This document shows positions 9,563 to 60,740 of a DNA stretch of 64,000 bases, piece by piece (the stretch's first letter is position 1; each line of letters starts with the position of its first letter). The notes beneath the pieces were generated by a model. It worked only from the letters and a program-made list of their open reading frames with translations. It was not told where the DNA came from and made no database searches. The stretch is from Selaginella moellendorffii. Taxonomy: Eukaryota > Plantae > Lycopodiophyta. The DNA lies in contig NW_003314378.1 of the NCBI RefSeq assembly GCF_000143415.4, positions 74,110 to 138,109 on the forward strand. Direction: 5' to 3'. The position numbers and the translations under genes are program-made.

Positions 9563-10039
9563 CTTCCATGGGATGGAATGGCTAAAAGAGTTGCAGTATA
9601 TGTTGATATATATATGCATCTAATACAAGAAAGGATACAAAAAAGTTCTTTCAACTGTTTCAAAGATGTTGTGCAGAAAGAAACTATGAGAAACTTATCT
9701 GCAACTCTAAAGCATGTTTAAAAGATCGTCTTTAAGGGTTTTATTACAAACACCCTACTTAATCTAGGCTACCAAAGACTCAACTAAATAAGGTTAGCCT
9801 ACAGAATTTACTATGAGGAGTACAACTTGCTACTAGTCTGAGGAGGTATATTTGTACATTACAAAAATATATTTTTCTTACATTATATTGTTTAGGATAA
9901 AAAATTAGATGTGTGAATCTCTACAATGTAGGGGTACATTTTGACCATATAGAGCGTGTATTAGGTTGGACAACTATGGGAGCTCACATGTATCCAAGGT
10001 AATTTTTATTCTCATTATATTGAAATGGTTGTAATATTT

Positions 10040-13907: not shown

Positions 13908-14064
13908 TGTGAGGGCCAAGTGTACGGCTATGACGCTATATACTAATATTAGTGTAGTGGGATTTTGGTAGCCATTGGATTGGTTTCAATCCGGATTGTA
14001 TATAAACTAGGGTTTTTGGGCTAATTGATATGTAAATTTCTGTATTCCCTTTCCATATTCCAAG

Positions 14065-14065
<1 letters not shown>
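13908..14065 (+). repeat. 3' LTR fragment of the gypsy relic
   Basis: Starts with TG immediately after the PPT. An inverted homologous copy is at about 47130-47296. Confidence 0.7.
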
Positions 14066-14604
<539 letters not shown>

Positions 14605-24939: not shown

Positions 24940-25504
24940 TGTAAACTCTTGAAATTAGACTTCTCGAGAAGTCACCAGCCCAGTACTATTCAAACCCAAA
25001 AACGCTTAACCCTAAGTATCCCAAAACCCTTAACCGATTTGGAAAAGGGGATGCACTCTTATTCATAGGCCCTTTCCCTCTATATTTGAACCCTATGGAT
25101 CGTCTCTCAAGTCGTTCTCTTTGGTTGCTTACAATTCACCATGCTTCCCTGCAAATTCACAAGACACTCCCTGCCCCGCTCTCTTGACACTCTACCCCTC
25201 GGGTCGAGCCCAGCAAGAGCAAACTGGACCAACCATATGTCAATCAATATGTGGTGTGATTCCCCTAGCCAACCAACAGAGTCAGACCCGAAACCCCCTC
25301 TAATACCAAATGTAAGCTCTTGAATTTGGATTTCCCAGGAGGTCACCCAGCCCAGTACTATTCAAACCGAAGGACGCTTAACACCAAGTATCCCAAGATT
25401 CTTAACCAATTGGAAAAGGGGGTGCACTTTTATTCATAGGCCCTTTCCCTCTATATTTGAACTTTATAGATCATCTCTCAAGTCGTTCTTTTTGGTTGCT
25501 TACA
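24940..25504 (-). mobile_element. Complete Cassandra-type TRIM (565 bp) with 5S rRNA-derived sequence in the LTRs
   Basis: Two 194-bp LTRs (24940-25133, 25311-25504) TGTAA...TTACA, TSD CACAT, PBS TGGTATTAGAG (tRNA-iMet type). The LTRs contain TTAAGCGT...TAGTACTGGGCTGGGTGACCTCCTGGGAA, similar to the 5S internal control region. Confidence 0.9.
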
Positions 25505-26034
25505 CACATGTCCGATCCCGTGATCGACACCCAAAGGTACCACTAATATATCAGCCTGTTATACTAAGACCATGCCTATTCACCCTTGTCACATTAGTAG
25601 TCCAAGACCACCTATATCACAGTCTTATCTTTCAAAGATTGGATTATCTCTCCATAAGTGATCATCCTTTGACCACACCTTAGCACCCTTATAATGCCTG
25701 GAGACATCCCTTCTTCCATTCTCATCAAGTCCCCCTTCATCCATGGTTGTGCTTGCCAACACTACCACTGGGTCAAGGCCCAAAGGCTTAACCACTAAAT
25801 CCCACTAACCTCTAGGACTTATTCACCACATGACCGTATCCTTGGTCACTATACCAGAGGATTACTCCTATTCCTTTCTATAGTCTAGAATTTTATGATG
25901 ACATTTTGAAACACTGTAGCCCTACACGAGCCTCGTGGGTACTTTCCCCACCTTCCATCTTTAGGTACCCTAGCCATGTGGCTAAAGCGAGGTTTCAATG
26001 AGTCACACAAGGTATCCAAGTAAGTAGTGCCACC
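25505..26034. repeat. Old LTR-like repeat that hosts the chromovirus insertion (continues at 45186-46060)
   Basis: The joined flanks match the reverse complement of about 49220-49920 and 53560-53900. Confidence 0.6.
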
Positions 26035-26383
26035 TGTCAAGAACCCCAACAAGATCAAGACTAGAAAATGCAAAAGACAAAGAGAAAAACTAGTGGAAAG
26101 AAAGAAGAAGCTTTAGACTGGTGTTGATTCAGATTGTGGAGAAATGGAACAAAGCTAACCTATATATACTATAGGTTGATGAAGCTCCACCACTCTTGGA
26201 TCGAGGACGGCCTAAATATAGCTGAGGTCGAGGAGGCACCACATCATCATCAGGAATGTGGCTCGAGACTCAGGAATCAGAGAGTCAGGAATAGGGAAGT
26301 GTCTCGAGAGTCAGGAATGTGGTCTACAGGTCAGGAATCCGGTGAGAGTCAGGAATGTAGCAAGAATTGGGGGATTCTTGATA
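26035..26383 (-). repeat. 3' LTR of the chromovirus
   Basis: Near-identical to 44837-45185 and adjacent to the PPT. Confidence 0.95.
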
Positions 26384-26479
26384 GCACTCCCTCCTCAAGA
26401 ACGAGTGGAACGAGGATGTGAACGAGAACGACAAGGAGGATGAGATGAGCGGCGAGGGATGGGAGATGGAGAAAAAGAA

Positions 26480-29400
26480 TGAGGACTGGGACGAGAAGGA
26501 TAGTGGTGGTGGAAGTCCTGAACAAGGTCAGGAGAATGAATTAGGTTGTCCACAGGTTCCCAAGTGCGTTCCTCAAGTCCGTAACCCTTCCAGTCGACCA
26601 GATAGTAGAGTTTAGACCGTGAAATCTTGGAATCAAGGATGTCCTAAACCTCGTACTCAGACCCATCCTCGAGTTGCACTGGTGGAGGCGGAGGAATGAC
26701 CCAATTTGGAATAGGACTGGGAATATGAGGCTCAAGGAGAGAGGAGTGAAAAACGGGGTGAATTTGATATGAGGAGGGAAGTGCAAGGCGATAAGTGACA
26801 GGATTAATGATGGCAGTGATAGGGAAAGGATCGAGGCGTTTGAAATCAAGTTTTGGACAAGGCCTGGTGGTGAAGATATTTCGCCTGAGGAGCCAAACTT
26901 TATCCCCGATATTGTAAGGGGGACAATCCTGACGATGGACATTGGCAAATGTTTTGTGAGATTCTTGAGCACGATGGAGGTGGAAGGAGATGGAGTTGTG
27001 GATTTTATCATCCTCAAACTGATGGACAGTCCGAGCGAACGATTCAGACGTTGGAACAATTCTTAAGGTGCTTCATCAACTATCATTAGGATAACTAGTT
27101 CGATATCCTTCCCCTTGCTGAGTTCTCCTATAACAACTCTATTCACTCCTCTCTTCGAATTTCCCCTTTCTTTACGAACTCTGGCCGAAATCCCTGATTC
27201 AATCTCTCACTTCCTTCTCCATCCAAATCCTCTCGTTCAAATCCCCGCTCTGAGGCATTTGTCTCCAACCTCCAGGCGCCGAAGAGAGGTTGGCCTTCAC
27301 TCCAAGCAGCTGCAAAAACTGTTGCCAGAAATGAGAGATGAACTGAGGCCCCCGATCCGAAACCACATCTGTAGGAATCCCATGAAGTCAGAAAATTTCC
27401 CTAAATACCAGTTTTGCCATGTCCTCGCCCAAAAACTCCTTGGTACATGGCAAGAAGTGCGCCATCTTTGTGAAGCTATCCACCACGACTAAAATGCTGT
27501 TAAAGCCTCCAAAACTCGGAAGATCACTCAAGAAATCCATGGAGATGGATTCCCAAGGACCTGAAGGGACCGGGAGGGAACGAAGCAAACCTGAAGGAAG
27601 GTGGCAAGGTACTTTATTCCAGGCACAAGTGTCACAGGAGGTAACAAAAGCTTTGATGTAGTCGTCCATGTGAGGCCACCAAAAGTCCCGTGCAACTACC
27701 TCATAGGTTTTTGCAATGCCAAAGTGACCAGCAGTTGGGCTATCATGGCACGCCATTATGACCAATCTTCGAGCATCACCTTCAGGAACGTAAAGCTGCT
27801 CCCCACGGTACAATAAGCCATCTAAGAACTCGAACTCGTCAAATCGCCGGCAATCGGGAGTCACTGGGTGTCTAGCCTGAAGATGGGGGAAAATATCGCT
27901 GGCGAGATCATCGGATTGAAGATCGTTTCTAATCGCATCCATCAAGGAGGAGTCCTGAGGGGCCAGGGAAATTGCCATAACTTGAAGCCGATCAGGACTA
28001 AGAATAACTTGATCCTGTTGATCGAAGGCAGGATTACCAGGCTTGAGATTGAGATAGGAGCGCCTTGAAAGAGCATCAGGAAGGCCTTGAAGCTTTCCAG
28101 GTCTATACTTGATAACAAAGTTAAACCGACTTAGGAATTGTGCCCACCTTGCTTGACGATGGCTTAAAACTCGGGAAGTGGCAAAGTACTCGAGATTTTT
28201 GTGATCCGTCTAGACTGTTGTTTGATGGCCCGCCCCTTCCAAGAAACGGCGCCACTCTCCAAAGGAATCCACAATGGCAAGGAGCTCCTTGTCGTGGATT
28301 TCGTAATTGATCTCCACAGGCTGGAATTTCCGAGAATGGAAAGCGACCAAATGAAATTCTTGATCCGCTCCGAGTTGAGACAACACAGCACCGATGGCAA
28401 AGTTGGAGGCGTCAACCTCGATGAAGAAAGGTTGTAAGGAATCAGCATGGATCAAGACGGGAGCAGAACTGAAGGCCACCTTGAGTGTGTCGAAGGCCTG
28501 TTGGGCAACAGCAGACCAAGAGAAGGGAACATCCTTGCGAGTGAGATGCGTGAAAGGAAGGACAATGTCAGAGTAGTGATCAATGAATTTGCGGTAAAAG
28601 TTGGCGAAGCCAAGGAAAACCTGAACGTCCGACATTGATTGTGGAGACTCCCATTCAAGAATAGTCTGTAAGCAACCAAAGGGAACGATTCGAGAGACGA
28701 TCTATGGGGTTCAAATATAGAGGGAAAGGGCCCATGAACAAGAGTGCACCCCTTTTTCCAATTGGTTAAGGGTCTTGGGATATTTGGGGTTAAGTGTCCT
28801 TGGGCTTGAATAGTACTGGGTTGGGTGACCTCCTGGGAAGTCCAAACTCAGGAGCTTACATAGTCTTGACTTTGGTAGGATCCATCGTGATACCCTCAGG
28901 AGAACATAGTCTTTGGAACTCCACAGACTGCTGATCGAAGGAACATTTCTCAAGCTTCGTGTATAGGCCGTGTTCTCGCAACTTCGCCAGCACCTTGCGT
29001 ACATGTTCATCGTGCTCCTCCTAAGTTTTTGAGTAGATGAGGATGTCATCGAGGTAGACAACGACCACCATTTGATCAAGAAACTCCCGAAAGACGTCGT
29101 TCGCCATGTGTTGGAAAACTGCTGGAGCATTTGTCAAGCCAAATGGCATGACAGTGTACTCAAAGTGGCCATAGCGGGTTCGGAACGCAGTCTTCCATTC
29201 ATCACCAAGTCAGATCCGGATCAGGTTGTATGCTCCACGGAGGTTAATCTTGGTGAAGAAGTGGGCACCGCCGAGGCGTTCCAATAGGTCCGAGATTAGG
29301 GGCAGCAGATAACGGTTCCGAACAGTCACTTTGTTCAAACCTTGGTAGTCGATGACTAGCCGCAAACTCCCATCCTTCTTCTTGACAAAGAAGACAGGCG

Positions 29401-30330
29401 CTCCAGCCGGGGACTGCGAATGCTAAATGTACCCTGAGGCAAGGTTCTCATCCACATACTCTTTGAGGGCCTTAAGCTCGGACGGGGATAGCCCGTAAAT
29501 AGGCCCCCACAGAGGTGACGCTCCTTCCTGTAAATCAATGGGACAGTCATAAGGTCAATGAACAGGCAGTACATTAGCTTTTTTCTTGTCAAACACATCC
29601 CCAAAATCATGATACTTCTCAAGAAGACTGACAGGAGAAACATGCAAAGCAAAAAGGAAAATAGGTTCTTCATGAAGGAGTTCTTTCATAGTGATTGTGG
29701 AGATTCAAGGAGGTGTACGACTAAATGGAATGATGAGACGAGGATATTGTCCAGTGTAAGATGGAAGAGAGGAAAAAGAAGAGGGTGAAAACTTCGTAGA
29801 GTCAGGAACAGAACCCCGATTTGAGTTTAGGGAACTTTTCCTGATTCGGACTCGATGAACAGCAGGGGAAGCCGTGGGAGATGGTGATGTGGGAGAGATG
29901 AGCTATAATTCCTTCCAACAGATCTAAGGCTGATGTAGTTGGAACCAAGGAAGATCGAGCACCACAGAGGAGGACTTGCTGTTGATGATGTTGAAGGCGA
30001 TATCAGTGACGGTGGACCCGATGTGTACTCGAACAGGCAACGTTTCCCTAAGTCCAGAAGATGGAGACACAAAATGCCCGCCGATGCCTTCAACCCTTAG
30101 ATCCCGTATGGTAGGAGAAAGAGGAACGTGATGTCGGGCAGCAAAGTCCGTGTCCATGAAGCAGGAAGTTGCACCCGAGTCCAGTAGCGCCAAAGCCTTG
30201 AGTCCTGATTGTCCGGTGAAAGAAAGGAGACATGGGACATGGAAGTTGCGGGAATTGGTGGTGGCTTTGATGAAAGGTGGTGAGGAGCTTGATAAAGAAG
30301 AAAAGTGATTTTTATTCGGGGAGTCCAAAC
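26480..30330 (-). pseudogene. Chromovirus pol (protease, RT, RNase H, integrase, chromodomain), disrupted
   Basis: ALLDSGATSCF; IEVDASNFAIGAVLSQ; NYEIHDKELLAIV; CHDSPTAGHFG..CDTC; chromodomain EYEV*DILDSK..YYLVDWKGYGLEERTWEP at about 26490-26660. Stops, frameshifts and an internal inversion. Confidence 0.92.
28667..28860 (+). mobile_element. Cassandra solo LTR inserted in chromovirus pol
   Basis: 194 bp TGTAAGC...GCTTACA, TSD TAGTC on both sides, 5S-like TAGTACTGGGTTGGGTGACCTCCTGGGAAGTCC. Confidence 0.92.
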
Positions 30331-31127
30331 AAACAGCTCCTACTCTGTTTGGACAGGGTCGTTTCCCAACTGCAACAGAGGTGGATTTTGAGGCAGAGTG
30401 AATTCGAGCAGTCGGGGAGGCTTCTTGGGACACACAGCTACTTTGTGATTAGGATCAGCACAGTAGAAAGCTTTATTTCGTTAAAGTGGGATTTATTCAG
30501 TAAAATGGGACTAGGTACAAATTTTCAAGTATTTGAAAATGACGTGAAATTATATGTTTTTTGTCCAGGGGCTAGACATATCTGGGGCATGGTGACTAGC
30601 GCGGTGACTTTGTGTCCAGACTGAGTCCATCTGGTTGTATAATAAATCTCATTGTTAAGGTGAACAAGCCAAATCTGAAGCTAAAGAAGAGCGATGGCAT
30701 GCGCGCACACACTATTTGTTTGTTCATTGAGTGTGTGGTGAGCTTTCCAAGATGAACGTCATTCCTATTAGCCAGACATATAACTTAATGGTGAGAACAT
30801 TTAGATATTATTCAATGTTATCTTTTTCTAACGAATCTAATTGTGAAGGTGTAGCAAGAGGCATTGCTAGTCTAGAGAAGTCATTTAACTCATTTGACCC
30901 TTAGTGTATTTTCATGAAACTAAATAACATTCATATTATTAAGGAATTTCTCTAGTACCTTTTTTTTACGACATAGAGGCTTGCATTTCTTTCAAAGGTG
31001 ATTTAGTAAAAGGCCTGAGGGCACATGCCATTCTATTTCTCAGACCGGTATTAAGATATACTAGTGCAAAGGGAAAAAGGTATTTGGTGATCAAGTAAAT
31101 GGCATGAGGGCACACGCCATTATAAGC

Positions 31128-31385
31128 CTAAGCGCTAGTGGACACCTCCTTTTTGGTACTCTCAGCGGTACTATCATCCTTCTCCGGGTCAGTTGTTTTG
31201 CTTTGGATTGTTGTCTCTGACGTTACTGGGGCGTTCTCGATAGTTGTTAATGTTGCCGTTTGTTCAGAAAAATGATCACTTGGAGTATAGTACGGGGAGT
31301 TTGGAAGACTTATATATTCTACATCTTCACCTATCTCCTTCTCCGTCTCCTTTTCTGCCTCACTTACAGATTTTGTGCTTGCCAT
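31128..31385 (-). CDS. Possible small acidic, Ser/Thr-rich ORF (85 aa) inside the transposon
   Basis: MASTKSVSEAEKETEKEIGEDVEY... is open in an otherwise AT-rich region and flanked by palindromes. No recognisable domain. Confidence 0.3.
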   Translation of the reverse strand: MASTKSVSEAEKETEKEIGEDVEYISLPNSPYYTPSDHFSEQTATLTTIENAPVTSETTIQSKTTDPEKDDSTAESTKKEVSTSA

Positions 31386-32098
31386 GAGAACGCTCTTCAC
31401 CCTAAAATATGGAGTTCGTTGTGTTATAAAAGGAAACCAACACACACGCTGCAAGGGAATGATGGTACATAAAGCACGTAAGCCCACAATATGGGTTTAT
31501 GTGCCATTAATATGGGCCACACGCCATATTATTAGATTTATGCACGTGTGATTGGTAAATGCATATGTCACATCATCTTTGTTTTACCTCACACACTATA
31601 TCAGGCCTAATGAACCATATCACATGTGCGCACATGCTATATATATGGAGAAGTATTATGCAAGGATAGAAAAATTCAATGCATGATTGTGGAGAACAAT
31701 GGCATGAAGCCACATGCTAAATAACATTTTAGAGAAAGAATTAAAATAGAAACATGCAAACAGTACTGAGTGGACCAAGACTTAGAAGTGCACAATTGAA
31801 TGAGGTATTTCTAATAAATATTTCACTCACCTCATATAGGAATGGCTACCACTCTCAAATGGCATATCGCCTCATGCCATCACCTCGCAATTTGTTATAA
31901 CAATCCGATGAATTCATATTCGGCTTGTTCACCTTGAACTTTAAGTAAGATTTGCTAGAACAACTAAGAATTTATACTTGTTATTTGTATCATCTCACCT
32001 AGGAATGGCGTAAGGCCACATGCCATCACGCCTCCTCTGATTCAGATTCGGATTGTTCACCTTGAAATAAAATACATTAGAAACTTAGTAAAGGAATA

Positions 32099-34924
32099 TT
32101 AATGAATCTCACCTTGAACCCGGGTTATGAATGCTCTTGCTGCATCTCTTGCATGGTCTGGCAAGGTGATGGTGGCACTCTGCTTCCGCATCCAACCATG
32201 CACAACATTATCCACCGATATGCTCATGCTGGGATCCCTTGGATTCAGCACCCATCTCTTTTCTAGGCAATCCTTCATATATCCGGAACTTGGCTTGAAC
32301 CACTCCACAATTACATTGAAGGAGTTAGTTTCCGCGTCCTCCTCTGCATCAGTGATGCAGCGCCCCACCCATATCATTTGTTTTTTATTACTGGGTCTGA
32401 CAAGCACGACCATTCCTTTGCAGACCTGTACTGGATTGAATGCTGAATCCGGCTTCTTGTTCCTCTGCCCACAATAGTGATCCTCAACATCGTTATCTGT
32501 CACTGCATTTCCAGAGGACATTGTTCCGCTACTATCTGGTGCTCTGGGTTCTGGCCAAAAGGACTCTTCCAATTCTTCATATACAACCGGCCCATTTTGG
32601 ATAGCAGATATAATCTTCTCCCAGTATTCGAGCAAAGGCTTGCACCTCTGAAAATAGGATTCTCCACCAAACACCAACCCCCTCTTCCAGAAGGCAATAT
32701 GCTGTCTAATCCCGGCCACTATACTTTCCTGGTCTTTGAGTCCATCCGGGTGCATCGGCCATGGGGAACCCTGAGGAATCATAGGTTCCCCAGTTATGGG
32801 ATCTCTCTTGAAGAGTTCAATGCCGTCCACTGGCAGCCACACTGTGTCCCATTCTCTCATCTTGTACCTCATCACTGGAGCACCGTCACGCATGCTGAAA
32901 TGAAACTGAAGAGGCTTGGAGTGGCCAATCAGCGTTTCGGATCCGTCCCTGATGTAGCCTCCTACAAACCCCTTAAAGTCTGGAACCCCTGTCACAAGTG
33001 CAGCTTCAACAGTGCCTTTGATGCAATTTTGGAATTCATCGTAGAGTTGTGGGAGGGTGAGGACATTGGATCGCCGGAGGGACTCTGCCAGGTGACTGAA
33101 CATGGCATCGACGTCTTCATGAGTGTGCCCAACCATGAGAAAGCCAAGTGTAACCGTTTCAAATATGCCTTTGGCAACAAGCATCGCCAAGTACGCGAAG
33201 ACATACATGTTTTTGTTCTCACTGCCAGCATTGTCTGTTTGGAGCAGAAGATGGGGTGGAAGGCCACATCGGCCGCAAGAACTTCCTTGAGATTCTACTT
33301 CGTTTGGATGAGGCTGTGCATTCACCGGGCGACCAGCCTCGTCGGAATGGCATGAGGCCTCACGTGATAACCCTACAATCTGACGGCCAACATATTCACT
33401 AGGATGGCATGGGGCCCCACGCAATACTGCAAGCCTTTGCTCCTCCTCCAGCTGAACCCTGTATGGGGTTCGATCGACAAGGGCCTTATGCAAGGGTTGG
33501 CCGTTCAACTCAGTCTGTGCACTTTGCAGAGACCTTAAGTGTTTTGCTAGGGACGCAATCATCATGTTTGCACCCCTGCCACCCCATAGAGGTACAAAGA
33601 AGTTCCCATAGTTCTGGGCACCATGCCCATGAGCGATTATGCCAAACAGAGACACAGGCAGCTGTATGGATGAAGAGATTGCCTTGGGGGCAGGATTGAG
33701 TCGAGGTAAGCACGTCTTTTTCTGGTCCATTTTGTCGTGGATGATGCAAAGGTAAGAGTCAGGTCTCTCCATGGAGAGAATCCTGTTATGATAATATGCA
33801 ATCCTGCAGCTTCTCTGTTCGATGTTGTGGTCGAGCCACCTTCTAACCAACGTCTCTCGCTCTTGAGCGATGCAAGAATTCTTCGACAAAGCCATTTTGA
33901 TAGCAGTGCACTCATCACACTTTGAAAAGCTGGAGTACTTTCCTATACTCACATCCCTGAACCTGTTGCTCCATAATCTACTAAATCTAGATTGGCTCAG
34001 CTTCCTGTAGCCATTACTCTAGAGTTCCCGATTCACATCTTCCAATATGGCCCCCTTGGTATACATGGAAGGGAGAACTCGTTGGGTGTCTCGAGTTCCA
34101 TCTTCCAAGAGGCAGGTTTTATGTGGTTGCTGCTCGCTACATGTCTCGACAAACCTCTTGAAGATTGCCTCTCCATATACAACATGACCCCTGGTTTTGT
34201 GAGTACCGTCGTTCCCATGGACTGCCTGTTGAACCCTTTGTTCCTCGAACTCAGTTTTGATTCTGTAGAATGTGGTTCGAGGGACTCCATAAATGATTCT
34301 CCATGCCTTCATGCAGACCAAACCCCTCTGGAAGACCATGCCCCCCACCTGATGTTCTGAAGCATCAACAGATGACCGTAATGCCTCATACACAAAATTG
34401 CGAGCTGCCTTCCAGGACAATGTCTTGTATCTTGCTCTCTCCTCTTCAATAGCATCCCAATCAGTATGTTGACAGCACCTCCTCTTGCAACAAGCAACTG
34501 TCGAGACCATTCGAACGTCCATCGCCATTTTTTGCCTTTTTGGTTCGTTGCTCAGATCCCTTTGGCTGCGCTTTAGGAAGGTGTACTTTCTTTTCCCATG
34601 AAGAGATGTTCTGTCATCAGTTGTAGTGGTGTTTGATTGTGAATCCTTCACATTCTCAAACACTAAGTGCCTCAATTTCCACCACACAATGCTTCCAATA
34701 GTCAGACTGTTTTCTTCTGTGTCAATAACCTCTAAAATCGCAACTCCAATATCATCCCAGCCCAATTCTTGATTAGCAACCACATCTCTTGGATCGACAA
34801 CTGTGGCTAAGCCCTCAGCTACCACCTCCCCCTCGGGGTTGTTTAGAAACACCTTTGCCTGAATCCATGTAGCACGGTTCTTAAGATCCACGGAGGGAAC
34901 ATGCGTCGCACTTGCGGAGGCCAT
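32099..34924 (-). pseudogene. Sola-like DDD transposase (about 941 aa) with one premature stop at 34019-34021
   Basis: ORFs 34019-34924 and 32099-33952 are in frame across a single TAG. Motifs FSKCDEC, IIHDKMDQ, LQTDNAGSENKN, FLMVGHTHEDVDAMFS. Confidence 0.75.
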
Positions 34925-37140
34925 TCTGAAAATGCAGAAAACAAAAAATGATTGGAGAATGGCCTAAATCATAACATACCAAACAACCTCAATAGCATGA
35001 GGCCACATGCCATTATTCAAACATGCTATTGACACCCATGTGAAATTTCGCATTCACAAAATTGGCATGAGGCCTCATGCCATCTTGATAAACACACAGC
35101 TACAGGCAGGTAAAGAAACTATTGGCAATATGCTAGTGATGAACTTGCAAGCCCCAAGATGGCATGAGCCCTCATACCATTAGTGGTACCGTAGCGCCGC
35201 TCGCACCACTGCAACTGCTCGTAGCGCCGCTTGCACAAACTGCCACTCGCATAAACTGCCGCTCGCAATGGCGCTCGCAATGCCGCAACCGCTCGTAGAC
35301 GCATAAACCACAGCTCACAACGCCGCTTACACAAGCAGCGCTCACTGCGCTCAGCGGAACCAAGAACACGGCGCACAAAAATGATAGACCTAGGAATGAG
35401 TTCGAGAATTCAAAAATAACACACGCTTGAACGTCACATCAAATCCTCTGATAAACCAGATCTTATGATTCCTCTGACAAATTTCAAACTGAGTAGCTTC
35501 TAGACTTTGCTGTCGGACGTTGAGCTTTGTCACATCATGTCCTTGCCTCAATCCAGCTATGCCATGTCAGTGATTCGAACTTTGCCATGCCATGTCAGCG
35601 ATCCGCGCCAAGATTATTCGCCGTGTAAAGGAATAATTATACTGTGTGTGTACGTACATTTATGGCAATATAAGGCCACACGCCATTCAAAGAATAATGC
35701 TAGTCGAGCATTTTTTGGTGCATTTTTGGGTTCAAAATTGCATAATCCCACACGCTATAAAGTTTACCTGTACCAAAAATAGAAACAGCTTTATTTACTT
35801 GGGAATTTAAGTGGTTGAGGCATTTTTAAACTTACAAACACATGCCCTACTTACATTCCTTTGGTTGCTTAAAATTCAAAAATATTATAAACCTTTCTTT
35901 TTGCATTTTCAATGTTTTCAATTATGGTTTTTGATTTTCGCAGGACCAGCCTAGTAATCTATTTGCATCCCGTCATGTTTATAGCTAGCTTTCGTTTGTC
36001 CCCTTCGCTAGCCTGAATCTGCTCGGCATCTGCCTCTTATAGCATTTGCCCAGAAAGGGCATCTTTCTTCACGCAACATTTGCCACATGTTTAGGGTTTA
36101 GGGTTTAGCAATTCAATAGCTTGATAAACATGTAAATACAGAACTTGATGCAAAATCCTTTGATATGTCACAATGCCCCTAGGACCATAAACACATTTCA
36201 ATAGAGAGGGTCCTTTCATTTCATAACTCCTTACGTAGATCTTGGTGAAACCAGAGTTAGTGAAGTTGGTTTCTTGTGATCCCACATCTGATTGTGATGT
36301 CCCTTTGCAGTGTCAATGGAAAGGTCAATGCACACCAAACTGTAGAATCTTGGAGCAAAATAACAGTCGGATCTATAGCAAATGCCCCTGAAACATTGTA
36401 AGGCTCGTGTGGTCTCATGTGGTGTCCGATCGAGATGCTTCTTTGCAGGGTCATCAAGAAGGACATTGTATACCATTCTTTATTTAGCTGAACATCTGGC
36501 ATTTTTGGAAATACAAGATGCTTTGGAATATCCAATCATGCATGGTATAAATATAGCGAGGGTATTAAATGATATCCCAATCATGATCTTTCTTTTGGAT
36601 TTCGCGTGCATGCAGTCCGAGGAATGATGACGTTGTGGATTTCTTTTGGATTTCATGTGCATGCATGTGCGCGGCGATCCAGAAAATAATGGTGGCGCCC
36701 AAGTCCGAGGAATGATGACGTTGCGGGATTACCAACCGTCGTGGCATTTCGTGCGTGTGAGGTTAGGTTTTGCATTTTTCTTCGTACTCGCGCTCGCATC
36801 ACGCTCCCACTCGCGATCACGCTCACATTCGCGCTCATCTACCTTCTCTACAGGTTTCTCGTGTGCATCGGCGTCCACTCGCGCTTGCATCACACTCGCG
36901 CTCGCATCGCGCTCGTGTGCATCGGCGTCCACTTCAAGACACACCCAGTTTGTAACTTCGCCGCCAACTCCGCCGCCCACTCTGCCACCCACACGCAGCC
37001 CACTTGGCGTCCCGGGAGATTTCAGCGCCACTCTCCAACTGTAAGTGGCAGAGTAGCCTTGCTGCTACGATCCGCTGCACACACAGTGCACATTCGCCAG
37101 CGAGTCCGGCCTCGATTGTCACGCCTCCATTCGGCTTCAA

Positions 37141-40100
37141 ATGGTAAGTCTTTTAGGCTAAGTAGAAAATGGCATGAGGCCACATGCCATTCAGTAGCAA
37201 CATTGGCATGCACCGATTGGGCTTTCGAGTGCAGTCTGGTTACAGATGGCGTGTAGCCTCACGCCATCTTAGGATGCAGCCTCAAGACATCTGATGCAGT
37301 GGTGAATGGCATGTGGCCTCACGTTATTTCCAGCTACTAACTTTTCATCTGTTAGCTCTAATTGTTGTGCATTTCTGAACAGGCGAGGAATTGCGTTCTT
37401 CTTCCAGCCACTGTCAATGTGGATGCAGAGAAGGGGGAGGAGCTCACCAGTTGGACTTTCGGGATGGAAGGCGAGGATCTGAGGCTGTACAACACAGATG
37501 GTGGGAGAAAAGAATGCATGGGGATCCTCATCCAAGTGACAGACACTCCATGCAGTTCCATGCAAGAATATGGACTGGCACTTGTGGTAGAGACAGCGTC
37601 CGCCTTCAAGATCCACCTTGCACATCCTAGCGGCTTCCCGGAGGGGGGCAGCGGCTATGAGGAATTCCTAGAGGGAGCTAGGGAGAGGTTGTCCAGGAGG
37701 CCCACAATTTCAAAGACGCTGCGGGTCTATAAAGATCACATGGAATCCACGGACCTCACTTACGGCGATGTTCAAAAACTATATTCCAACATTGAGCTGT
37801 TGAGAGTGACTCCAGTTCGCGAAGCGAAGGGGAAGGGGGTCGATCTGGAAACTACCCCGAAGCAGAAAAGGGTGGTCAAGCTCAAGCCGACATCAGACTC
37901 TCCTGCTCCAAAAAAGAAGCTACTCGGTGATGCCATTGCCTCGGGTTCGAACAATACACCCACCAAAAAGAAGAGCCACAAAGAGCAGAAAGAGCAAGAA
38001 GAGGCAGCAAAAATCGTCGCAGATAATAGTACTTGTTACTATTCCAACAAAGTATATACAATCGACGTGAGCCACATCGACATCCAAAGCAAATACAACC
38101 ACAGGCTAGTATCTGATGAGTGGGTGGAGAAACTGAAGCAGAAGATGCTGGCAAGTCCAGTAACACCCGACATCACAGACGTGATCCCCTACTACCGAAC
38201 AATGAAGGGCGAGACGAGGTTTCCAGACTTGATCAATAGGAAGGTGTTGGACGATCAGAACATCCGGTTCTATGCCGTCTCCGGGCAGCATTCTAGCTTG
38301 GCGATGCAAGAGATAGTTGTGGATATTATGGTGGGCGAGGAGGTGAAGAAAGTCTTCAAGACAAGAGTTGTCCGCCTGATAAAAGGCAACTCGCCCCTCC
38401 GATCTATCATATACATCTCCCACGCACAGAATGTCAAGCAAGAAACGTGCTACAAATCGGGTCTGCACGAGACATTGGCACGAACACGGAAGCTCTGGGT
38501 TCAACTAAAGAAGCCACAAAAACCAGGACAAGGACGTGCACTAGCAACTAGCGCCTGGCAGGTAAGCCTCGTTGCATGTGGCATAGCATGTGGCCTCACG
38601 CCATTTCCATTGCAAGAATTCTCGAGTCTTCTCTCGAAAACACTGGGGGTCAATGACACACTTAGCATCCATAACATTCTACTCGCGACAAAAGTTGTTT
38701 TTGACAAATGGGTAGATGTGCTGAGGAGGTACCATGACAGGGAGTTGCTAAACTCAATGGGTGTGGAGGACGGCCGGAAGCCCAATGATTTGAAGCTCAA
38801 CGCCTTGCGTTTCTCGCGGTCTCTAGACGACGACGACCTTCTGACAGTGGCTAATGCTCTTCTACGTGGTGAGGTAGTCTTCAACAAGACTAAAATGACT
38901 CCCGGCCATATTGTGACATATGAGGACTTGTGCACAACTCTGAGAGCTCGTGCGCTATTGAAGGATTGGATCTTCGAGCAAGTGGCTGTGGAGAGGGTGA
39001 GCATCGACACCACACAAGAGATGATGGAAGAGCTGGAGTTGTCAAATGAAGACATTGACGAGTACATGAAGGGGGCCCCCAAGTTCATCGATCTGCTGCG
39101 GGATGCCACGAAAAGTAAAGCTGAGAAGTTGGATCAGTATCTAAATTTCATTAAGAGGGATGTCGACCGCCGGCTTCAGAAACAGCTCGACCCCACAGCA
39201 GAGGCCTATCGAGAACCTTACCGGGTATACGTGAATTCGGATGAGGATCAAAGGTGGAGGAGCATCGTTTCCCGCAGAGATGAGCAGGTCAAGAACATCT
39301 TTTGTGTGATGGACTTCACAAACGAGGAGATCACTCATGCAGACGAAGTCAGCTCCATCATTGACTTAATGGTGGGACTTGCAGAGGTGGAATCTTCAGT
39401 CCACTATATGATCTACGACTCCGAATCCTATCACAAGTTCTGGAAGACCTTGAACAAGGTGAAGGCTCGGTTGAAAGGCAAGGAGATGCGGGAGATCCAT
39501 GGGATAATGGCTAAGAAGAAGATATCGACGAATGTCCGCATCTTCACACTTGCCCTTGTTATTGGTCCTACAGCAGAGTGGGACTAGAGTGACTTCCCAG
39601 CTTCGTTCGACAAGGCCGATCGAATTGATCTGAGGGAGGTCAATTTACCCGTGCCTGAGGAACTAAAGACGGCTATGGAGCTTTCGAATCCAGAGAAAGC
39701 TCCAAGTGCAGCATGGGAAATGCTCAGGTGGGTCTTCAACGCAATAGCGGGTGGGTCACTTGCTTCCGACTCCAAGGGCAAATGCATTGTCGAGTACAAC
39801 TGCGGCGGACTATTCTTTTGAGCCGCACTACTCAAGGGTGTCCCGTGTGTTGCGGTGACAAACTCCATTGAAGAGGTGACTTCAATGGAGCATATAATTA
39901 CAGTTGCCAAAGAAAAACAGTATCTTCTCTGCGAATCTGGTGAGTACGCACTTTAAGTTTAAATGTTATCTCACAAGCTCTGTATGCAAGAGCGTTGCCA
40001 CCCCCAGATGCTGAAACGGCGTTAACAGCTACTGTTGAAGATACCCATGTTGGGCCGAGCTCACAACCTGCACAAGGTAAGGTCACATGAGGCCTCACGC

Positions 40101-43100
40101 CATTTTGATTATAGATCGTTGTGAATATTCAGACACGAGGACTGAAAAGCGCACTGGTGGCGCGTCGAAGAAGGACAAACAGACAAGCAATAGGAAAAAA
40201 GGAGGTACAAATTATATTTGCAATGGCGTGTGGTCTCATGCCATTCTTTGCAGGAGACACTTCTTCAAAGGCAAAACAGGCAAGCACCAGCCAAGTACAA
40301 TGGATGAGAGGTACCAATCATTTTTGTTATACGTGAATTCTCATGCCATTGCTTCTTGCAGCTCAAATTCCAAAGAGACTAGGGCAAGCAGCGCAGACCT
40401 CACGACAAGAACCTGAAGGTTTGATGGCGTGTGGCCCCACGCAATTAACTAATGTTCTTACAGATCGCGTCGAGGAAATCGAACGGAACAACGTGCCTCC
40501 AGTGGAGGAGGGGGAGGCCTCGGAGAGTGATAAGGAGAGTTCCGAAACAGGTACGATCATGACATATGGCCCCATGCACTTATCTAAGTTTGTATTTCAG
40601 GGGAACGAGTTGAACCAATGGAAAACTGTATGAAAGGTAACTTAAAAATATTATGGGATGTTGCATGTGTTGATGGACAGTTCAAGTGCCAAGGAGACGT
40701 CGTGAACCTCGAATTAAGCTACCTGCAAAACAGCTTTCAGACGCTGTAGACAAAGAGATGGACAACCGACCAGGGCAGAGGAGGAAGGGTAAAAGCATTT
40801 GTGTGCTTATCGCGTATGTCCTCATGCTATTTCTGTAGAACGGGCGTATAAGAAAAAAAAGCGAAAGGGAATTGAGGAGCAGGCACCTGAGGATGCGGAA
40901 GGCACGACAGAGCCTCCAAGGACGGGAAGTAAAGCGTCATGGTTATTGCGTGGGTCCTCATGCCATTTCTTGCAGATCAAGCTCAAACTGACAGTGGTCA
41001 TAAAAAGCGAAAGCACGTTGGACAGTCGTTGGGATCAGAGGCGTTTGATTCGAAAAGGAAGAAGGGAAACGAAAAGATGATAGGTAATGCCTCGCGGTTA
41101 TGGCATGTGTGCTCATGCCATTCATTGCAAATCAAGTGCTGAGTGAAAGCAGCCAGTCACCACCTCCTGACTCAGATTCCTATGGCGGACTCCCCTTCCC
41201 CAATCTCAATGGAGAGGTACAATGGATGAGGGATGCTTTTCAAGTCAGGGCCACGTTTTTCTCATCTCGTTGTCTTCGAAGGGTGCAAGAACGTGCAGAA
41301 ACCATGTTAAGACAGTCGGGTGAGGATACGGTCCTAGGTCACGCACTAAAACAGGCTATGGATGTCTTGTATTTTGAGATGGAGACTCGGCCAGATGATT
41401 TTCCCAAGATGGTCCTGGAAGAACAAGCCATCCAGCCTGAGCAGCCTATGGAAGAAATGCAGGAGGGGGATGACGAGCCAGAGAAAGATAATGAGCAGGA
41501 AGAGCAGAAGGACAAAGAGGAGGACAAAGAAGAGGAGGACGAAGAAGAGGAGGACGAAGAGGACTTGGATGGTCCTCACAATGGTGACGATCACAATAAC
41601 GACAACGACGATGATGACGACGATGGCCAGCCTGAGGTGGCCAAAGAGCAGCGGAGGAAGGTCATACAAGACAAACCATCAGGTAAATAATAGTACATCC
41701 ATTCCTAACCTTTTACCATTTCTAACATTGTCCATGTAGGTTGCAGAGCAAATGGTAAGTAGAGATTATTCAGTTGAATTAAGATACAAACTCTAGCCTT
41801 TAGTGTCGAGGAAGGAAAGTGCCAAGCAAGAGTCGAAATGTATGTCCAATCCTTCAGAATCAGCAGTGCGCCCAAGTGATATCAGTCCTAGTTCCTCAAT
41901 AGCAGTTGATGGTAAATACAGTATAGTTGATTCAATGTGCTAATGAGTTTGTTTTTAGTAGCACGGGAGGATACCATCTCAATCGAAGGGAGATATTTGG
42001 ACATGCATATGGATCCGCCAGTGGACTCTACTTGCTTGCAAGAGTCATCAGAGATGGTGGAGGCTACTATCCATATCAACGCCAAGCAAGCTGACCACGC
42101 TCCACTTGATGCTGCCCATACCACTGAGTCAATCTTGTCCACGTATCCAACTGACGGTGACCAGGCGCCATTGGACCCGCATGAGGCCACCCCAGCCGCC
42201 GAGCCGGTCGTATCCTCATTTCCAACGGACTCAACGTGTGCCCAATCGTCTGACTACGCGCCGTTGGAACCTCCCTACACCGCCCCTGCTGCCTGTTCGG
42301 TCATGTCCACTTTGCCAACGGAGGCACCAGCTGAAATGGCGTGTGATCACACGCCATCGGAACCACCCCATGCCACTGTTGAGCCAGTTGTACCAGAGTC
42401 TACAACTGAAATGGCATGTGCCCACACGCCATCGGATGCGATTGACCCCACATTGCAGAGGAGAGTATTTCCGCCCTTCACGTTTCCTCGACCAAAACCC
42501 TCTCAACGACCATCGGGAGCACCATTCGCTAATATTGTAGATGGTAAAATTGACTTGTACCATTTTTTATGCTGACGCATTTCATTTCAGAGTCACGGAG
42601 AAGGTACTGTATCGTTTTTGATCTGAACGGTGTCCTTTTCTCCCATGAGCGTGGCTCGTCCTCGAATGTCACAGCACCCTCCAAAGCCTACGGTCGCAAG
42701 TTGGTCAAAAGAGACAGATTCACATTAATCACACGGGAGAAACTGCGGGATCTAATAATGACCATGCGACACTTAAAACAGAGGGCCGGGTTCAATTTGC
42801 AATTGGGAGTTTGGACATCCATGATGCGCCACAATGCATTAACGTTGCTACAGATGATGCACGATCAGACGCGAGTAATATTACCATTTGACTTTCTCCT
42901 AACGCAAGAGGATTGCTTGACTATGGTCCATGTGAGGGGTAGCAAGCCCATCTTCGTCAAGCCAGAGGCTGTAGTGATGAACCGGACTGCTAGGTCAAGT
43001 GAAATCCTCATCATCGATGACTCGCCGATTAAAACTGCAGCGAACACACACACATATGCAGTGCACCCCATCTCTTGCAATATGGAAACTAGGGAGAAGA

Positions 43101-43453
43101 AACCGTATGTTCTGGGGGACCTTGCAAAACGGCTTGGAGCGATGGTGATAGAGAACCGGCCAGTCTAGGAGGTGGCTGCAGAAATCAACCAAATGGCAGA
43201 TGGAACGGTATATCAGAAGCCATTTGATCGGACAGACACCAGTCATCATTTATGGCATGTATATTGTCTAGCCAAGCACTATCCGCATCTCCATAATCTG
43301 CTCAACCGAATGGGTTCTTCGACCACTGAACATGAGCGTGGACATATTAGAGAAGAGATGGCATTACTATTGGGTTTAAATCCTGATAGTGTGGAGAGTG
43401 ATGAAATTCCAAGATTATTGTATAGGCGTTGGAGGCAAAAAATAACAGTCTGA
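37141..43453 (+). pseudogene. 17-exon transposon cargo gene (about 1,776 aa): ParB-like, MTase-like fold, acidic/repeat linker, FCP1-type HAD phosphatase
   Basis: ATG|GT at 37141. Exons join in frame: 37383-38561, 38616-39939, 39990-40076, 40133-40204, 40254-40310, 40362-40418, 40464-40550, 40601-40636, 40681-40788, 40839-40928, 40976-41083, 41131-41682, 41740-41754, 41804-41911, 41959-42543, 42591-43453. Motifs AVSGQHS, VFDLNGVL, VWTS, IIDDSPIK. Three premature stops and three CAG>CAA acceptors. Confidence 0.7.
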
Positions 43454-43895
43454 GATGGCATGTATTTATTTAAAAATGTAACTTATTATGGCATGGGGTT
43501 CCATGCCATTGTATTAATATTAAAAGACAATTCTTTGAGAGGATTTGCATTATACTAGAAGTGTTACAGCATGTTATTGGAAGTCTACGAAGTTGTTTTA
43601 TTAATAAGGGGAAAGTAAAGATTGAATGGGGACTTGGGCTCCACCTAGACTCGGAGCAACTGAGCCAATATTAAAAGGATGGAAAGAAATTGGACGACGA
43701 TGACAAGGAGAAGAGAGAGGTGAAGCAGTGGCAGGGGGAGGAAAAGTGATTGAGTAGACATTTCCTTGTTTAAAATAAAATGGCATGTGCCTCAATGCAG
43801 TTGAATTTTGTTATATTTATATACTATATAAAGGTTTGGAAACCTTATTTTACAAGTGGGATAATGACAATTCCCACTTTAACGAAATAGAGCTT

Positions 43896-44742
43896 TAGAG
43901 GCAAAGATTATGAGATATTCGACATTGCTTCTCAGCAGGACTCAACTTCCCTCTAATGAGTCGGGGAGTACCAGAAATATCCATCGGGACCGAAGCAGTA
44001 GGTTCAGGAGTATGCCCCGAAGACTCGAGCTGGGATTCCTGAGTCTGGGACTGAAAAACAGCAGCGTGGCAACTTTCCTAACGACGTTCAAAGAGACGAT
44101 TGTCACATTGAACAGCTTTGTTGATGGCGTCCGATAGGTCCTTGGGATCCTCCATGGTGAGCAACAAATCCTTGACACCGTTGTTGAGACCGAAACGAAA
44201 TTGGTCAATCAGGGCCCGCTCATCCCACTGAGTGTCCAAGGCAAGGAGTTGGAACTCTGCAGCGTAGATCGAGGCAGGACGAGACCCCTGAGAGAGATGT
44301 CTCATCTTTGTGGTAGCAGCCCGAACTTGATCCGTCTTGCCAAAACATGCTTCGAGCTTCTCTTTGAACAATTGAAGATCCATTAGCTCTGGAACCACAA
44401 CCCTTTCATGCTCTTCTCCAGAAGAGGAGAAAACCATGACAAAGCTGCACCTTTGAGAAACGTCCCAATCGCGCTGATTTGAGACTCGGGAGTGGGGTAC
44501 CGCCGATGTTGAAGTGCAAAGATCAGCTCCATCTGGTTCAGAAATCCGCGAAGCTCCGAACACTTGCCTGAAAATTTTGCCGGGAAACTCACCTTCGGTT
44601 CAAGAACTTTGCTGGATCCTTGAGCCAAAAGTGAAGCAAGCTCCTGCTGCATGCGAAGAAGGGTCGCCTTCAGCTTGGTATTCTCAGACTGGATTTTTGC
44701 AAGGACTTCGGCAAAGAAATCAGGATGGCTTGGAGACTCCAT
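43896..44742 (-). pseudogene. Chromovirus gag (frameshifted); zinc knuckle completed at about 30420-30467
   Basis: PAKFSGK.SELRGFLNQ, GAALSWF, LSQGSRPASIYAAEF, QFRFGLN..VKD. Confidence 0.88.
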
Positions 44743-44819
44743 CGGCAAGAAGAAAGAAAAAGGGGGAAAAAGACAACGGCAATCAAACAATCGAAACAAG
44801 CTAAAGCAAAAGCAAAAAA

Positions 44820-44836
44820 CACAATCTGAATCAAAC
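44820..44836 (-). promoter_or_regulatory. Self-complementary primer-binding site
   Basis: Minus-strand GTTTGATTCAGATTGTG directly follows the 5' LTR and complements LTR-internal CACAATCTGAATCAA, located about 25 nt downstream of a TATA-like box. Confidence 0.75.
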
Positions 44837-45185
44837 TATCAAGACCCCCAACAAGATCAAAACTAGAAAATGCAAAAGACAAAGAGAAAAGCTAGTGGAA
44901 AGAAAGAAGAGGCCTTAGACTGGTGTTGATTCAAATTGTGAAGAAATGGAACAAAGCTAACCTATATATACTATAAGTTGATGAAGCTCCACCACTCTTG
45001 GATCGAGGACGGCCTAAATATAGCTGAGGTCGAGGAGGCACCACATCATCATCAGAAATGTGGCTCAAGACTCAGGAATCAGAGAGTCAGGAATAGGGAA
45101 GTGTCTCGAGAGTCAGGAATGTGGTCTGCAGGTCAGGAATCCGGTGAGAGTCAGGAATGTAGCAAGAATTGGGGGATTCTTGACA
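44837..45185 (-). repeat. 5' LTR of the chromovirus
   Basis: Matches 26035-26383 and is followed by TSD CCACC. Confidence 0.95.
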
Positions 45186-47129
45186 CCACCCACACTTGGA
45201 TTGGGAATATCGACCATTTGATGTCCCAAGGGAGGTATAGCCAGCTCCTAAACACTTCACTAAGCTACCCTGTTTGTCTATCCATATTCACTCTAGTCTT
45301 AGACTCTTTAATGGATATATTATCACGCAACACATGGGTATAGCCTTCCTTGGTCACACTAACATTTTCTAGCCAATTTGGCTCTACTGAAGTCCTCCTC
45401 TTACTATACTTTTGGAGCTCACCAAACCCCCTAGGGTCTTAAAGACGAACACTTTGGGCTTTCACCCTCGGATTTAGACTTGGGCTTGGACTTGGGCTCG
45501 GACTTGGACTGGGATTTGGACTCGGACTCAAACTCGGTCTCAGTCTTCGTCTTGGTCTCGGTCTCAATCTCTTTCTTGGCCTCAACCTCAGACTCTATCT
45601 CAGGTCCATCTCGAACTTGATCTTAGACTCCATCTCAAACTCCATCATAGGTCTATCTCAGACTCCACCTCAGGTCCATCTCAGATCCATCTTAGACTCT
45701 ATCTTACACTTCATCTCAGGTCCATCTCGGGTCCATATTGAACTCCATCTCATATCCATCTCAAACTTCTTCTTGGAGACCATTTCAGATGCCATCTCAA
45801 GTATATATTAGACTCCATCTTAGGTCCATCTCAAACTCCTTAGACTCCATCTTGGAAACCCATCTTGGATCTATCTCAGACTCCATCTCGAATTCTATTT
45901 TAACACTTCTATGTGTCATGTATTGGTCCTTTTATGTCCCTTTTCTAGAGACTCACTTACTACTTACTTCGTACTTATTCCTTAAGCACTTCATTGGGAG
46001 TTCCACTCCCACTCTCGACTGTTCAAGTTAGAGTTTTTAGTCCAAACATGTTATGTTTGTTTGGCTTCTGCTTCAGCCACTACCACGTGGTACCCTTTGG
46101 GCTCCCGTTTGGGGCTTAGGGATTTATGTCTCACACAATTGCAGCAACACTAATAAGAAGTTGTTGACACCAAGGTCTCCACCTAAGAAATGGAGGTCAT
46201 CTATCCAGAAAACACCGACATTATTGATAAGTGTGACCAACTTCATCACACACTTAGCAATGGACATCACAACTATGACCATATCTTCGCTTTTGTCCTT
46301 GAACTTAGGCGGTAGCAGCATCAACCTCCATTGAAACAAGACCATCTCCCATAAGAAGTGAAACTGAAGGATGTGCAACAAGAAGTGGAAGAAGTGATGT
46401 TTTATAATATTATGCTAAATGAAGAGCATTGTTAAAGGTAACTAAAGTAAGTGCATGCACAAGTCTTACAAGATCTTGACGAAGTGCTAGCTACAACATT
46501 CCCAACTTAATCTACTTTAATATTTGGCTTCACACAAAATCGAATGCCACATTGCATTATTAATTCATATGGCTCTTGATGAAGATAATGCAATTGTTGA
46601 AAGGCATCATCTCAATCATCAATATGTCTATATGCACGGTTGAAGACATCCAAGGGAACACTTTAATCCACACAAGTGGCTATGCTTAAACCATTGTACC
46701 ATTGTAGTGCATCCCTTAGAAACAAGTGGGAAATCATGCAAATGCTAAGCATCATCAATATGTGGCAATCATCGTAAAGTGATCAAACCAATGATACACA
46801 TCATCCTCAATATTCTCATAGAAGAACTCTGGCCAAATGCAAGGATTGGCAACAAGAGCAAGAGTTGTACCATACACCATAAATACCACTATCAATTGAG
46901 TCTAATTGTTCAATTACAACCATATAATATCGAACAACTGCACCAACTATTGCTCTAGAGTCAAAGGAGGAGGAAGTTATTACTCTACTATAAAGATGAA
47001 CAAATAGGGAAAAGCAAAATAGAAGAGTGAAGAAGAAGAAGGAAAGTTAATATAAAAGCTAGATCAAAACTAAAATTTCAAATCCAAGCACTCTTTAGAG
47101 ACAATCCCTTTCACCTCCACTAATGTGAA

Positions 47130-50200: not shown

Positions 50201-50419
50201 CAATCCCCCTCCCCGGGTTAGACTAGATTTAAGGCTACACTCCCCGCAGGCACAAGCACTCAAGCACACCAAACTTTTAGGTTCCTAACATCCTTTGGTA
50301 TAACAATGCTTTATCATGGGACCTTCTAAATCCCAAACCTTAGGTGCAACACTTGCGTCAGGATGCCGAGGGAAAACACCGTGGCCTAATGGCTTGGTAT
50401 AGGTACCTCTACCCCCCCA

Positions 50420-51127
50420 ACCCAGTATTATTCAAACCCAAGGACGTTTAACCCTAAGTATCCCAAGACCTTTAACCGATTGGAAAAAGGGGTGCACTTT
50501 TATTCATGGGCCCTTTCTCTCTATATTTGAACCTCATGGATCATCTCTCAAGTTTTTCTCTTTAGTTGCTTACAATCCACCACGCTTCCCTACAAATTCA
50601 CGCCTTCATGAACGGAAGCTAAGAGCCGCAACTCTCCCGAGAGCCCCGCTCTCTTGACACCCTATCCCTCGGGTCGAGCCCAGCGGGAGCAAACTGGACT
50701 TGCCAAATGTCAATCAATATATGGTATGATTCCCCTAGCCAACCTATCCCTTGGGTCGAGCCCAGCGGGAATAAACTGGACCTGCCAAATGTCAATCAAC
50801 ATATGGTATGATTCCCCTAGCCAACCTATCCCTCGGGTCGAGCCCAGCGGGAGCAAATTGGACCTGCCAAATGTCAATTAACATATAGTATGATTCCCCT
50901 AGCTAACCAACAGAGTTGGACCTAAGACCCCTCTGATACCAAATGTAAGCTCCTGAATTTAGACTTCCTGGGAGGTCACCCAACTCAATACTATTCAAAC
51001 CTAAGGACACTTAACCCCAAATATCCCAAGACCCTTAACTGATTGAAAAAGGGTATTCATGGGCTCTTTCTCTTTATATTTGAACCCTATGAATCGTCTT
51101 TCAAGTCATTCTCTTTAATTGCTTACA
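50420..51127 (-). mobile_element. Cassandra TRIM with one truncated LTR and three 82-bp internal tandem repeats
   Basis: LTR 50944-51127, perfect PBS TGGTATCAGAG, partial LTR about 50420-50574, repeats at 50661, 50743 and 50825. Confidence 0.85.
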
Positions 51128-60375: not shown

Positions 60376-60740
60376 CTCTGCGAATACGCATCGATCATCG
60401 ATCAACGCGATCCAAGAAACAAGGTTCGTCTCCCGCATGCGACCAAACAGCTAATCTCTCGCGAATTCCAGGTCGCCGCCACAGATTCCAGGGCTTGCGA
60501 GGAACCAAAATTTTCAGACAATCCGACAGCCAGGTGAAAGAAATGCGTTTTGACGATCATTTATGTTGTCTCGTTTGTAGGAGTCATGTCCGCCGTGACA
60601 TTCTTCGTGAACACCTCTGATGGCGAATGAAGGGAGTGTCCAGAAACACCCCGAGACACCTCCCTGGGCGCTCTTGGGTGTAGTCATTGTGATGGAAGCC
60701 GGCTCGAGATGTTAGCTGGGTGGAAGTGTCAAGTGATGAG

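Follow-up and report, generated by a model that had tools for sequence, protein, structure and literature searches.

The window analysed here is a 64,000-nucleotide stretch (64 kb) of contig NW_003314378.1 of Selaginella moellendorffii. It contains a complete Sola1-like DNA transposon of 13,428 bp (30468..43895), and a 22-bp palindrome is dispersed through this element. Such palindromes mark this Sola1-like cut-and-paste transposon in a family-specific manner.

The element and its genes

The element is bounded by a pair of terminal inverted repeats (TIRs) and a 4-bp target-site duplication (TSD). The left TIR (30468..30491, + strand), which is the 3' end relative to the transposase, begins with AAGCT and matches the right end in 23 of 24 letters. 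The right TIR, the 5' end, is the 24 bp at 43872..43895 (- strand). The TSD, TAGA, was read at 30464..30467 and 43896..43899 (both +). No palindrome half-site is contained in the left TIR. An empty site joining 30463 to 43896 with 4 shared letters was present in contigs of the runs X1, X3, and X7, which come from two samples. The element is high-copy, as its summed depth in these three runs is very high. The window copy is approximately 1–2% diverged from other copies of its family, and the differences are mostly A-for-G and T-for-C. The insertion is hosted by a gypsy-type long terminal repeat (LTR) retrotransposon (26034..45187, - strand). It is split within gag, and its two LTRs share 96% identity over 354 bp. 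Three features expected of Sola1 were found: a 4-bp TSD, TIRs starting with AA (24 bp), and an RNase H-fold DDD/E transposase. The transposase motifs are taken by us to be of the Sola1 type, and the Sola1 of Physcomitrella also has a 4-bp TSD. The element is classified as Sola1-like by its termini, its duplication length, and its layout matching Sola1-1_Ec32 of the brown alga Ectocarpus. The nearest named homologues are from Riccia, which, together with the introns of about 55 nt in a host gene, points to a seed-free land plant as the host.

The transposase gene (32099..34924, - strand) encodes a DDE transposase of about 940 aa with a DUF7869 domain (Pfam PF25273, E=1.4e-42) and the invariant D, D, and D/E motifs; one in-frame stop interrupts this copy at 34019-34021. 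Its first intron is predicted at 34926..35189 (- strand) from the GT..AG borders and holds the palindromes 34992, 35062, and 35159. The structural model of the transposase has a predicted local distance difference test (pLDDT) of 82 and consists of an SH3/Tudor-like N-terminus, a winged helix at residues 245-330, an RNase H-like core, and a chromo/BAH-like C-terminus. The core was matched to an integrase core (Z 8.5, root-mean-square deviation 3.1, 132 aligned), and the winged helix resembles the RFX5 and CENP-B folds (Z 6.4-6.5). Foldseek with the whole transposase gave no match at E<=0.001, and no paper on DUF7869 was found by the literature search.

A large divergent accessory gene runs on the opposite strand. 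From an ATG at 37141, a first intron is predicted at 37144..37382 (+ strand; GT..AG, in frame with the next exon), and it also holds three palindromes (37169, 37246, and 37306). The large exon follows at 37383..39939 (+) and carries two in-frame stops in its translation; the palindrome 38583 probably lies in a short in-frame intron of this gene. Downstream, an open-frame splice search that was blind to the palindrome sites predicted a chain of 10 GT-AG introns, each 44-68 nt long and separated by short K/E-rich exons (39940..41152, +). Eight of these ten micro-introns hold one palindrome each (40082-41100). No splice joints were obtained in one run that was taken as RNA and may be DNA. Therefore, the introns remain predicted. 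A deletion of about 686 bp (40291-40978), whose joint was seen in X1, X3, and X7, is common among other copies of the element and removes several micro-introns and palindromes. The accessory region ends with a NIF/HAD-like phosphatase-type domain (42554..43168, +; PF03031, E=2.1e-6). Each of the two divergent genes has CG-rich short degenerate repeats at its 5' end (35190-35330 and 36780-36930) that vary in length between copies, and a telomere-like TTTAGGG run lies near 36090.

From its motif order by eye, the accessory protein may be ParB-like with a degenerate amino-methyltransferase-like (N4/N6) domain; the canonical methyltransferase catalytic motif was not seen by eye. No homologue was found among proteins of 292-931 aa or of 917-2615 aa, and there was no match in viral contigs, phages (tblastn), PDB sequences, Pfam, or PHROGs. 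A tblastn search against the 80 relative loci described below was also negative. With a methyltransferase profile of 51 sequences, the accessory protein ranked 242 of 615, below shuffles, and a profile of 13 sequences gave no support. Its single-sequence model was poor (pLDDT 35), and fold searches with this model were non-significant, with weak methyltransferase rows at E about 0.09.

The palindrome and its distribution

A dispersed palindrome with fixed spacing had been proposed from a first reading of this DNA, and the original prediction proved real. The pattern ATGGCRTG-N6-CAYGCCAT is matched exactly eight times, and 17, 22, and 27 times with up to 1, 2, and 3 mismatches, always within 30694-43801. 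Exact half-sites are paired at a spacing of 6 eight times and at all other spacings from -10 to 40 only once. A symmetric weight matrix places 28 sites of at least 12 bits in the element, whereas the remaining 50.6 kb of the window has none and reaches 5.4 bits at best. The same matrix gave a mean of 0 sites in 20 first-order Markov samples of the element. In total, 28 strong and three weak sites lie within 30468-43895. The 30 coordinates listed in the original prediction were largely upheld, as 27 of them score at least 13.6 bits when left out of the matrix. Three are weaker: 40328 (8.6 bits) and 31506 (1.7 bits) keep one good half each, and the site at 35662 is interrupted by a 3-bp insertion. 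Two sites had been omitted: one at 30539, which is degenerate, and one at 35737, which scores 16.8 bits.

The arms and the spacer length are conserved as had been claimed. The spacer, however, is not variable throughout. Among the 62 half-sites, G occupies position 10 in 55 and position 11 in 42, and A or T occupies position 9 in 52. Therefore, the unit is one full 22-bp palindrome, ATGGCRTGWGGCCWCAYGCCAT, and not two arms around a free spacer. Position 5 is C in 58 of the 62 halves and position 6 accepts A or G, unlike symmetric CpG decay. Mirrored positions did not co-vary: the Fisher test for positions 6 and 17 gave p=0.70, positions 9 and 14 are complementary in 10 of 31 sites, and the same lack of co-variation, within noise, was seen in five relatives. 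Such independent variation argues against a hairpin and favours a double-stranded site that is read half by half. The flanks of the sites are mutually unrelated, again as had been noted, and internal sites score better than end sites, which indicates that the word has outlasted its surroundings. Conservation relative to neighbouring intron bases had been suggested as a test; among copies, conservation is uninformative because the family is too young.

The sites are spread over almost every part of the element. At the left (3') end, a degenerate outermost site (30539..30560) keeps one half and lies 71 bp from the tip. Its score of 1.0 bit has a background frequency of 1.4e-4 per position, and none of the first ~190 start positions scores higher. 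Eight palindromes follow in the non-coding 3' arm (30694..32026; starts at 30694, 31010, 31099, 31506, 31619, 31699, 31859, and 32005), and no differences of other copies are listed at degenerate 3'-arm sites, except at 31864. Two lie in the transposase frame (33347 and 33404, together 33347..33425). They correspond to residues ~501-527 and are located partly inside a low-confidence insert of the model (pLDDT <50 at 512-551) and partly at its edge. Each of the two predicted first introns has three, and two weaker ones (35662 and 35737, within 35662..35758) lie between the divergent genes. Beyond the micro-introns, two palindromes in a P/A/E-rich open frame (42336 and 42411, within 42336..42432) belong to a 75-bp duplication, and two more are in the right arm (43488..43801). 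Of these, 43780 is the outermost and stops 94 bp short of the 5' end of the element. A CRISPR-like or satellite array was ruled out by the irregular spacing without any spacer regularity, and miniature inverted-repeat transposable element (MITE) insertions were ruled out as neither duplications nor shared flanks surround the sites.

Relatives, their words, and the element ends

Relatives were collected by a transposase-alignment scan, and the best 80 of 448 loci were studied. Leaving out 14 near-duplicates as well as 19 loci that fall outside the largest clade gave 47 loci. Of these non-redundant loci, 39 have at least three sites with the core TRGTGGCCACYA, counted with a leave-one-out matrix (null mean 0.08). 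A de novo palindrome finder also takes tandem repeats (38 matches in the right flank of the window; apparently also L018, L057, and L063, and perhaps L049) and overlooked L021. Therefore, the counts were taken from the leave-one-out matrix. Outside the largest clade, the loci L001, L021, and L024 have three other, unrelated words. The other 16 loci, on contigs of 1-5.7 kb that are mostly coding, gave no clear word, and that of L078 is unconfirmed. In a FastTree tree of the transposases (61 of 75 rows after near-duplicate removal, midpoint root), the palindrome word appears to track the transposase; the outer arms of the word follow the transposase subclades while the TIR is shared.

Complete relatives with TIRs and a 4-bp duplication are L009-L011 (11.3 kb) and L067/L070 (5.4 kb). 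Their TIRs start with AA and their target duplications are ATAT and TAAA. The 47 sites of L009 are all enclosed by its ends, within 1206-12478. Relatives of 4.3-5.4 kb (L039, L055, and L067) have no room for an accessory gene and retain both end sites. No accessory coding is common to the clade; only N-terminal modules of the transposase are shared. L009 has a divergent NIF-type frame opposite to the transposase, as in the window. Two tandem NIF-like frames are carried as cargo in L009 (3455-5367, - strand), and a related frame is found in L040. Extra exons upstream of the transposase core in L012, L026, L031, L045, L060, and others encode SH3/TNP1-like modules, and these exons are apparently a tandem N-terminal extension of the transposase.

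The distance from the ends to the nearest site was measured after the removal of 13 near-duplicates. At the 3' ends (n=30), the gap is 70-74 bp in 21, 54 bp in four, and 84 bp in one, and four have no proximal site. At the 5' ends (n=10), it is 87-94 bp in five, 73 bp in one, and 212 bp in one, with none in three. The window element, with 71 bp to its weak 3' site and 94 bp at its 5' end, has the same geometry. A palindrome at a fixed, asymmetric distance from the tips, as in piggyBac-type elements, was thus found in 21 of 30 3' ends, five of 10 5' ends, and the window. The departures from the usual gap (-19, +11, and about -20) are near whole helical turns in these few cases. The TIR and the word of the window element differ from those of the largest clade, and its transposase is 25-37% identical to those of the clade. 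Therefore, the window is an independent case, though its 3' site is weak.

These results also refine how the sites had been described. The statement that they are not confined to subterminal regions holds, with 18 of the 30 listed sites more than 2 kb from either end, but it is only half of the picture, because the outermost sites stand at a fixed distance from the ends. That they are not a tandem repeat is correct in the window except for the duplicated pair; in relatives, however, the words often stand in tandem arrays of about 24, 46-50, 113, or 140 bp. The expectation of a dimeric-protein binding site agrees with the data, as a two-fold symmetric protein would fit the missing mirror co-variation, the unrelated flanks, and the separate words of the relatives.

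Outside the element, the window contains probable host genes and repeats. Two long frames at 2064-4231 (- strand) have a weak P-loop ATPase match and presumably resemble Crinkler-like plant ATPase/nuclease genes. A GC-rich 711-aa frame at 16733-18868 (+) is probably a host gene and a 316-aa frame lies at 60693-61643 (+), both without a Pfam match. A host NAD-binding epimerase-like gene at 58457-59467 (+), which we take to be CSP41-like, has introns of about 55 nt that are read through in frame. Therefore, short introns are normal for the host. An AT-rich short-unit repeat tract (14002-14720), a 12-bp tandem array (52140-52995), and dispersed LTR-like repeats of another family (24975-25504 and 50416-51127, 77-93% alike) were also observed.

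Possible function and known systems

We consider that the palindromes may be binding sites for the element's own dimeric transposase, with a probability of roughly 0.5. The transposase is favoured because the word changes with it, is kept in short elements without accessory genes, and stands at a fixed asymmetric gap from the ends, and because the transposase model has candidate DNA-binding folds. The transposase would read the palindrome as a two-fold symmetric dimer. Its helix-turn-helix (HTH)/winged-helix part would bind the outermost sites, and the molecules bound there would be helically phased with those at the terminal repeat. The molecules at the outermost sites would aid an asymmetric pairing of the two ends, as the subterminal palindromes of piggyBac do. 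With less confidence, the internal copies might have spread by local duplication where coding allowed, that is, in introns, arms, and loose loops, and might be kept as extra sites that recruit or titrate transposase. Such sites could serve avidity, self-regulation of the two promoters, or the carrying of the predicted chromatin-reader domains along the element.

Several points weigh against a role of the transposase. The left-end site of the window element is weak (1 bit) and the right-end site is among the weakest, and the majority of the sites stand at a great distance from the ends, in parts where transposition requires none. Common ancestry may account for part of the fixed gap within the large clade, where the median spacer identity is 61%. 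Fold matches with Z<8 may reflect merely a common arrangement. The short elements could have arisen by deletion and depend on an accessory protein that acts in trans, and accessory genes in degraded relatives could have escaped notice. An accessory gene that is large and divergent is present in the window element itself, and ParB-like accessory proteins are combined with inverted-repeat arrays in published elements of algae (PMC12477816; bioRxiv 10.1101/2025.02.11.637652).

The main alternative is a reading that is possible though doubtful, in which the accessory protein, as a ParB-like clamp with a degenerate N4/N6 methyltransferase-like domain, reads the sites and coats the element to resist silencing or to mark it, as VANC does on VANDAL or as has been suggested for the ParB accessory genes of algae; the end-proximal site could then play a TnpA-like helper role. 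Sites throughout introns, arms, and promoters, with three per predicted first intron, are consistent with this reading, and so are the weak methyltransferase rows of the fold search (E about 0.09). The layout, the AA termini, and the 4-bp TSD ending in A match Sola1-1_Ec32, whose accessory gene is ParB plus methylase in the consulted part of its description. The motifs of the anti-silencing protein VANC, according to the part of PMC5735166 that was available, are likewise non-coding, family-specific, and spread in tandem, like the arrays of the relatives; however, they are 9-bp, non-palindromic, and co-oriented. Moreover, support for ParB/methylase homology came from none of Pfam, PHROGs, PDB sequences, phage tblastn, and the 51-sequence profile, the accessory model reached a pLDDT of only 35, and the words persist in elements without accessory genes. 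An extended version, which we regard as unlikely, is a repurposed partition-type system: the ParB-like clamp would load at ~30 parS-like palindromes and coat or condense the 13-kb element, and the helically phased outermost sites would hand the ends to the transposase. If the ParB-like reading is true, the own word of each family would provide a large natural set of protein-site pairs.

The internal copies could also be neutral by-products of tandem duplication of subterminal DNA, with the outermost sites alone functional. The plain tandem arrays in relatives and the 75-bp duplication in the window agree with this, and a family only ~1-2% diverged is too young for a test of conservation. Nevertheless, this seems quite improbable to us, since the internal sites match better than the end sites and have unrelated flanks, the C at position 5 in 58 of 62 halves is unlike symmetric CpG decay, and sites persist within reading frames. 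That eight of ten predicted micro-introns hold one palindrome would suit RNA or single-stranded DNA hairpins, for example in micro-intron splicing. Compensatory pairing is absent, though, with A.C at positions 6/17 (+ strand) in 10 of 31 sites and W/W pairs in just 10 of 31. Moreover, sites are present in intergenic DNA, in the 3' arm, and on both transcribed strands, Rfam gave no match, and the ~55-nt introns of the host gene at 58457-59467 lack the word. Hairpins are thus very unlikely. We would give as little credit to the recruitment of a host transcription factor. Sites do cluster in first introns and between promoters, but the 22-bp words are wholly different between families and absent from the flanking host DNA, which co-evolution with an element-encoded partner fits better.

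The palindrome code is a real, family-wide feature of land-plant Sola1-like transposons and a variant of known self-binding motif systems. It offers a cis code that can be put to concrete tests: a 22-bp palindrome specific to the family, with an asymmetric gap to each end that is conserved across transposases that are 25-37% identical. Dozens of natural word variants on the transposase tree make end recognition and protein-site co-evolution testable by swaps. No description of dispersed or end-phased palindromes in plant Sola elements and no mechanistic work on Sola transposons were found by a literature search, for which most subscription papers were out of reach. A Sola1 of Physcomitrella, like the window element a Sola1 in a seed-free land plant, is listed in a table of PMC9033089. 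A close counterpart is Sola1-1_Ec32, as described in PMC12477816: a giant Sola1 of 21.5 kb with a 282-bp TIR, AA-starting termini, a 4-bp TSD ending in A, and a large accessory gene opposite the transposase as in the window. Its ParB and methylase domains are recognisable, unlike the candidate ones of the window element, which were proposed by eye alone, and the word 'palindrom' is absent from the main text.

Among better-known transposons, piggyBac and piggyBat have palindromes set asymmetrically from the two tips and bound by a transposase dimer, with a sequence that varies between members; these are found no more than about 120 bp from the tips, and a cysteine-rich domain recognises them (PMC11707139). 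In the window element, the first site is reached 71-94 bp from the tip, and the roughly 30 copies extend across 13 kb. The Plavaka of the red alga Bostrychia with its ParB-like PAG3 is also a giant transposon with accessory genes and with inverted-repeat arrays proposed as self-binding sites. It belongs, however, to the EnSpm superfamily, and in the part of the preprint available its arrays adjoin PAG3 and are not dispersed or end-phased as in the window (bioRxiv 10.1101/2025.02.11.637652). As in VANDAL with VANC, a family-specific motif dispersed in introns and other non-coding parts of the whole element and spread by tandem duplication was found here. VANDAL is Mutator-like with a 9-bp, non-palindromic, co-oriented motif, in contrast to the DUF7869 transposase, 4-bp TSD, and palindromic word of the window; no VANC-like gene was detected in the window element, and the accessible part of PMC5735166 does not describe a fixed end geometry for VANC. 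Marking along a whole element is known from VANDAL and has been proposed for giant transposons of algae, and it appears here in a land-plant Sola element, down to one site per predicted micro-intron.

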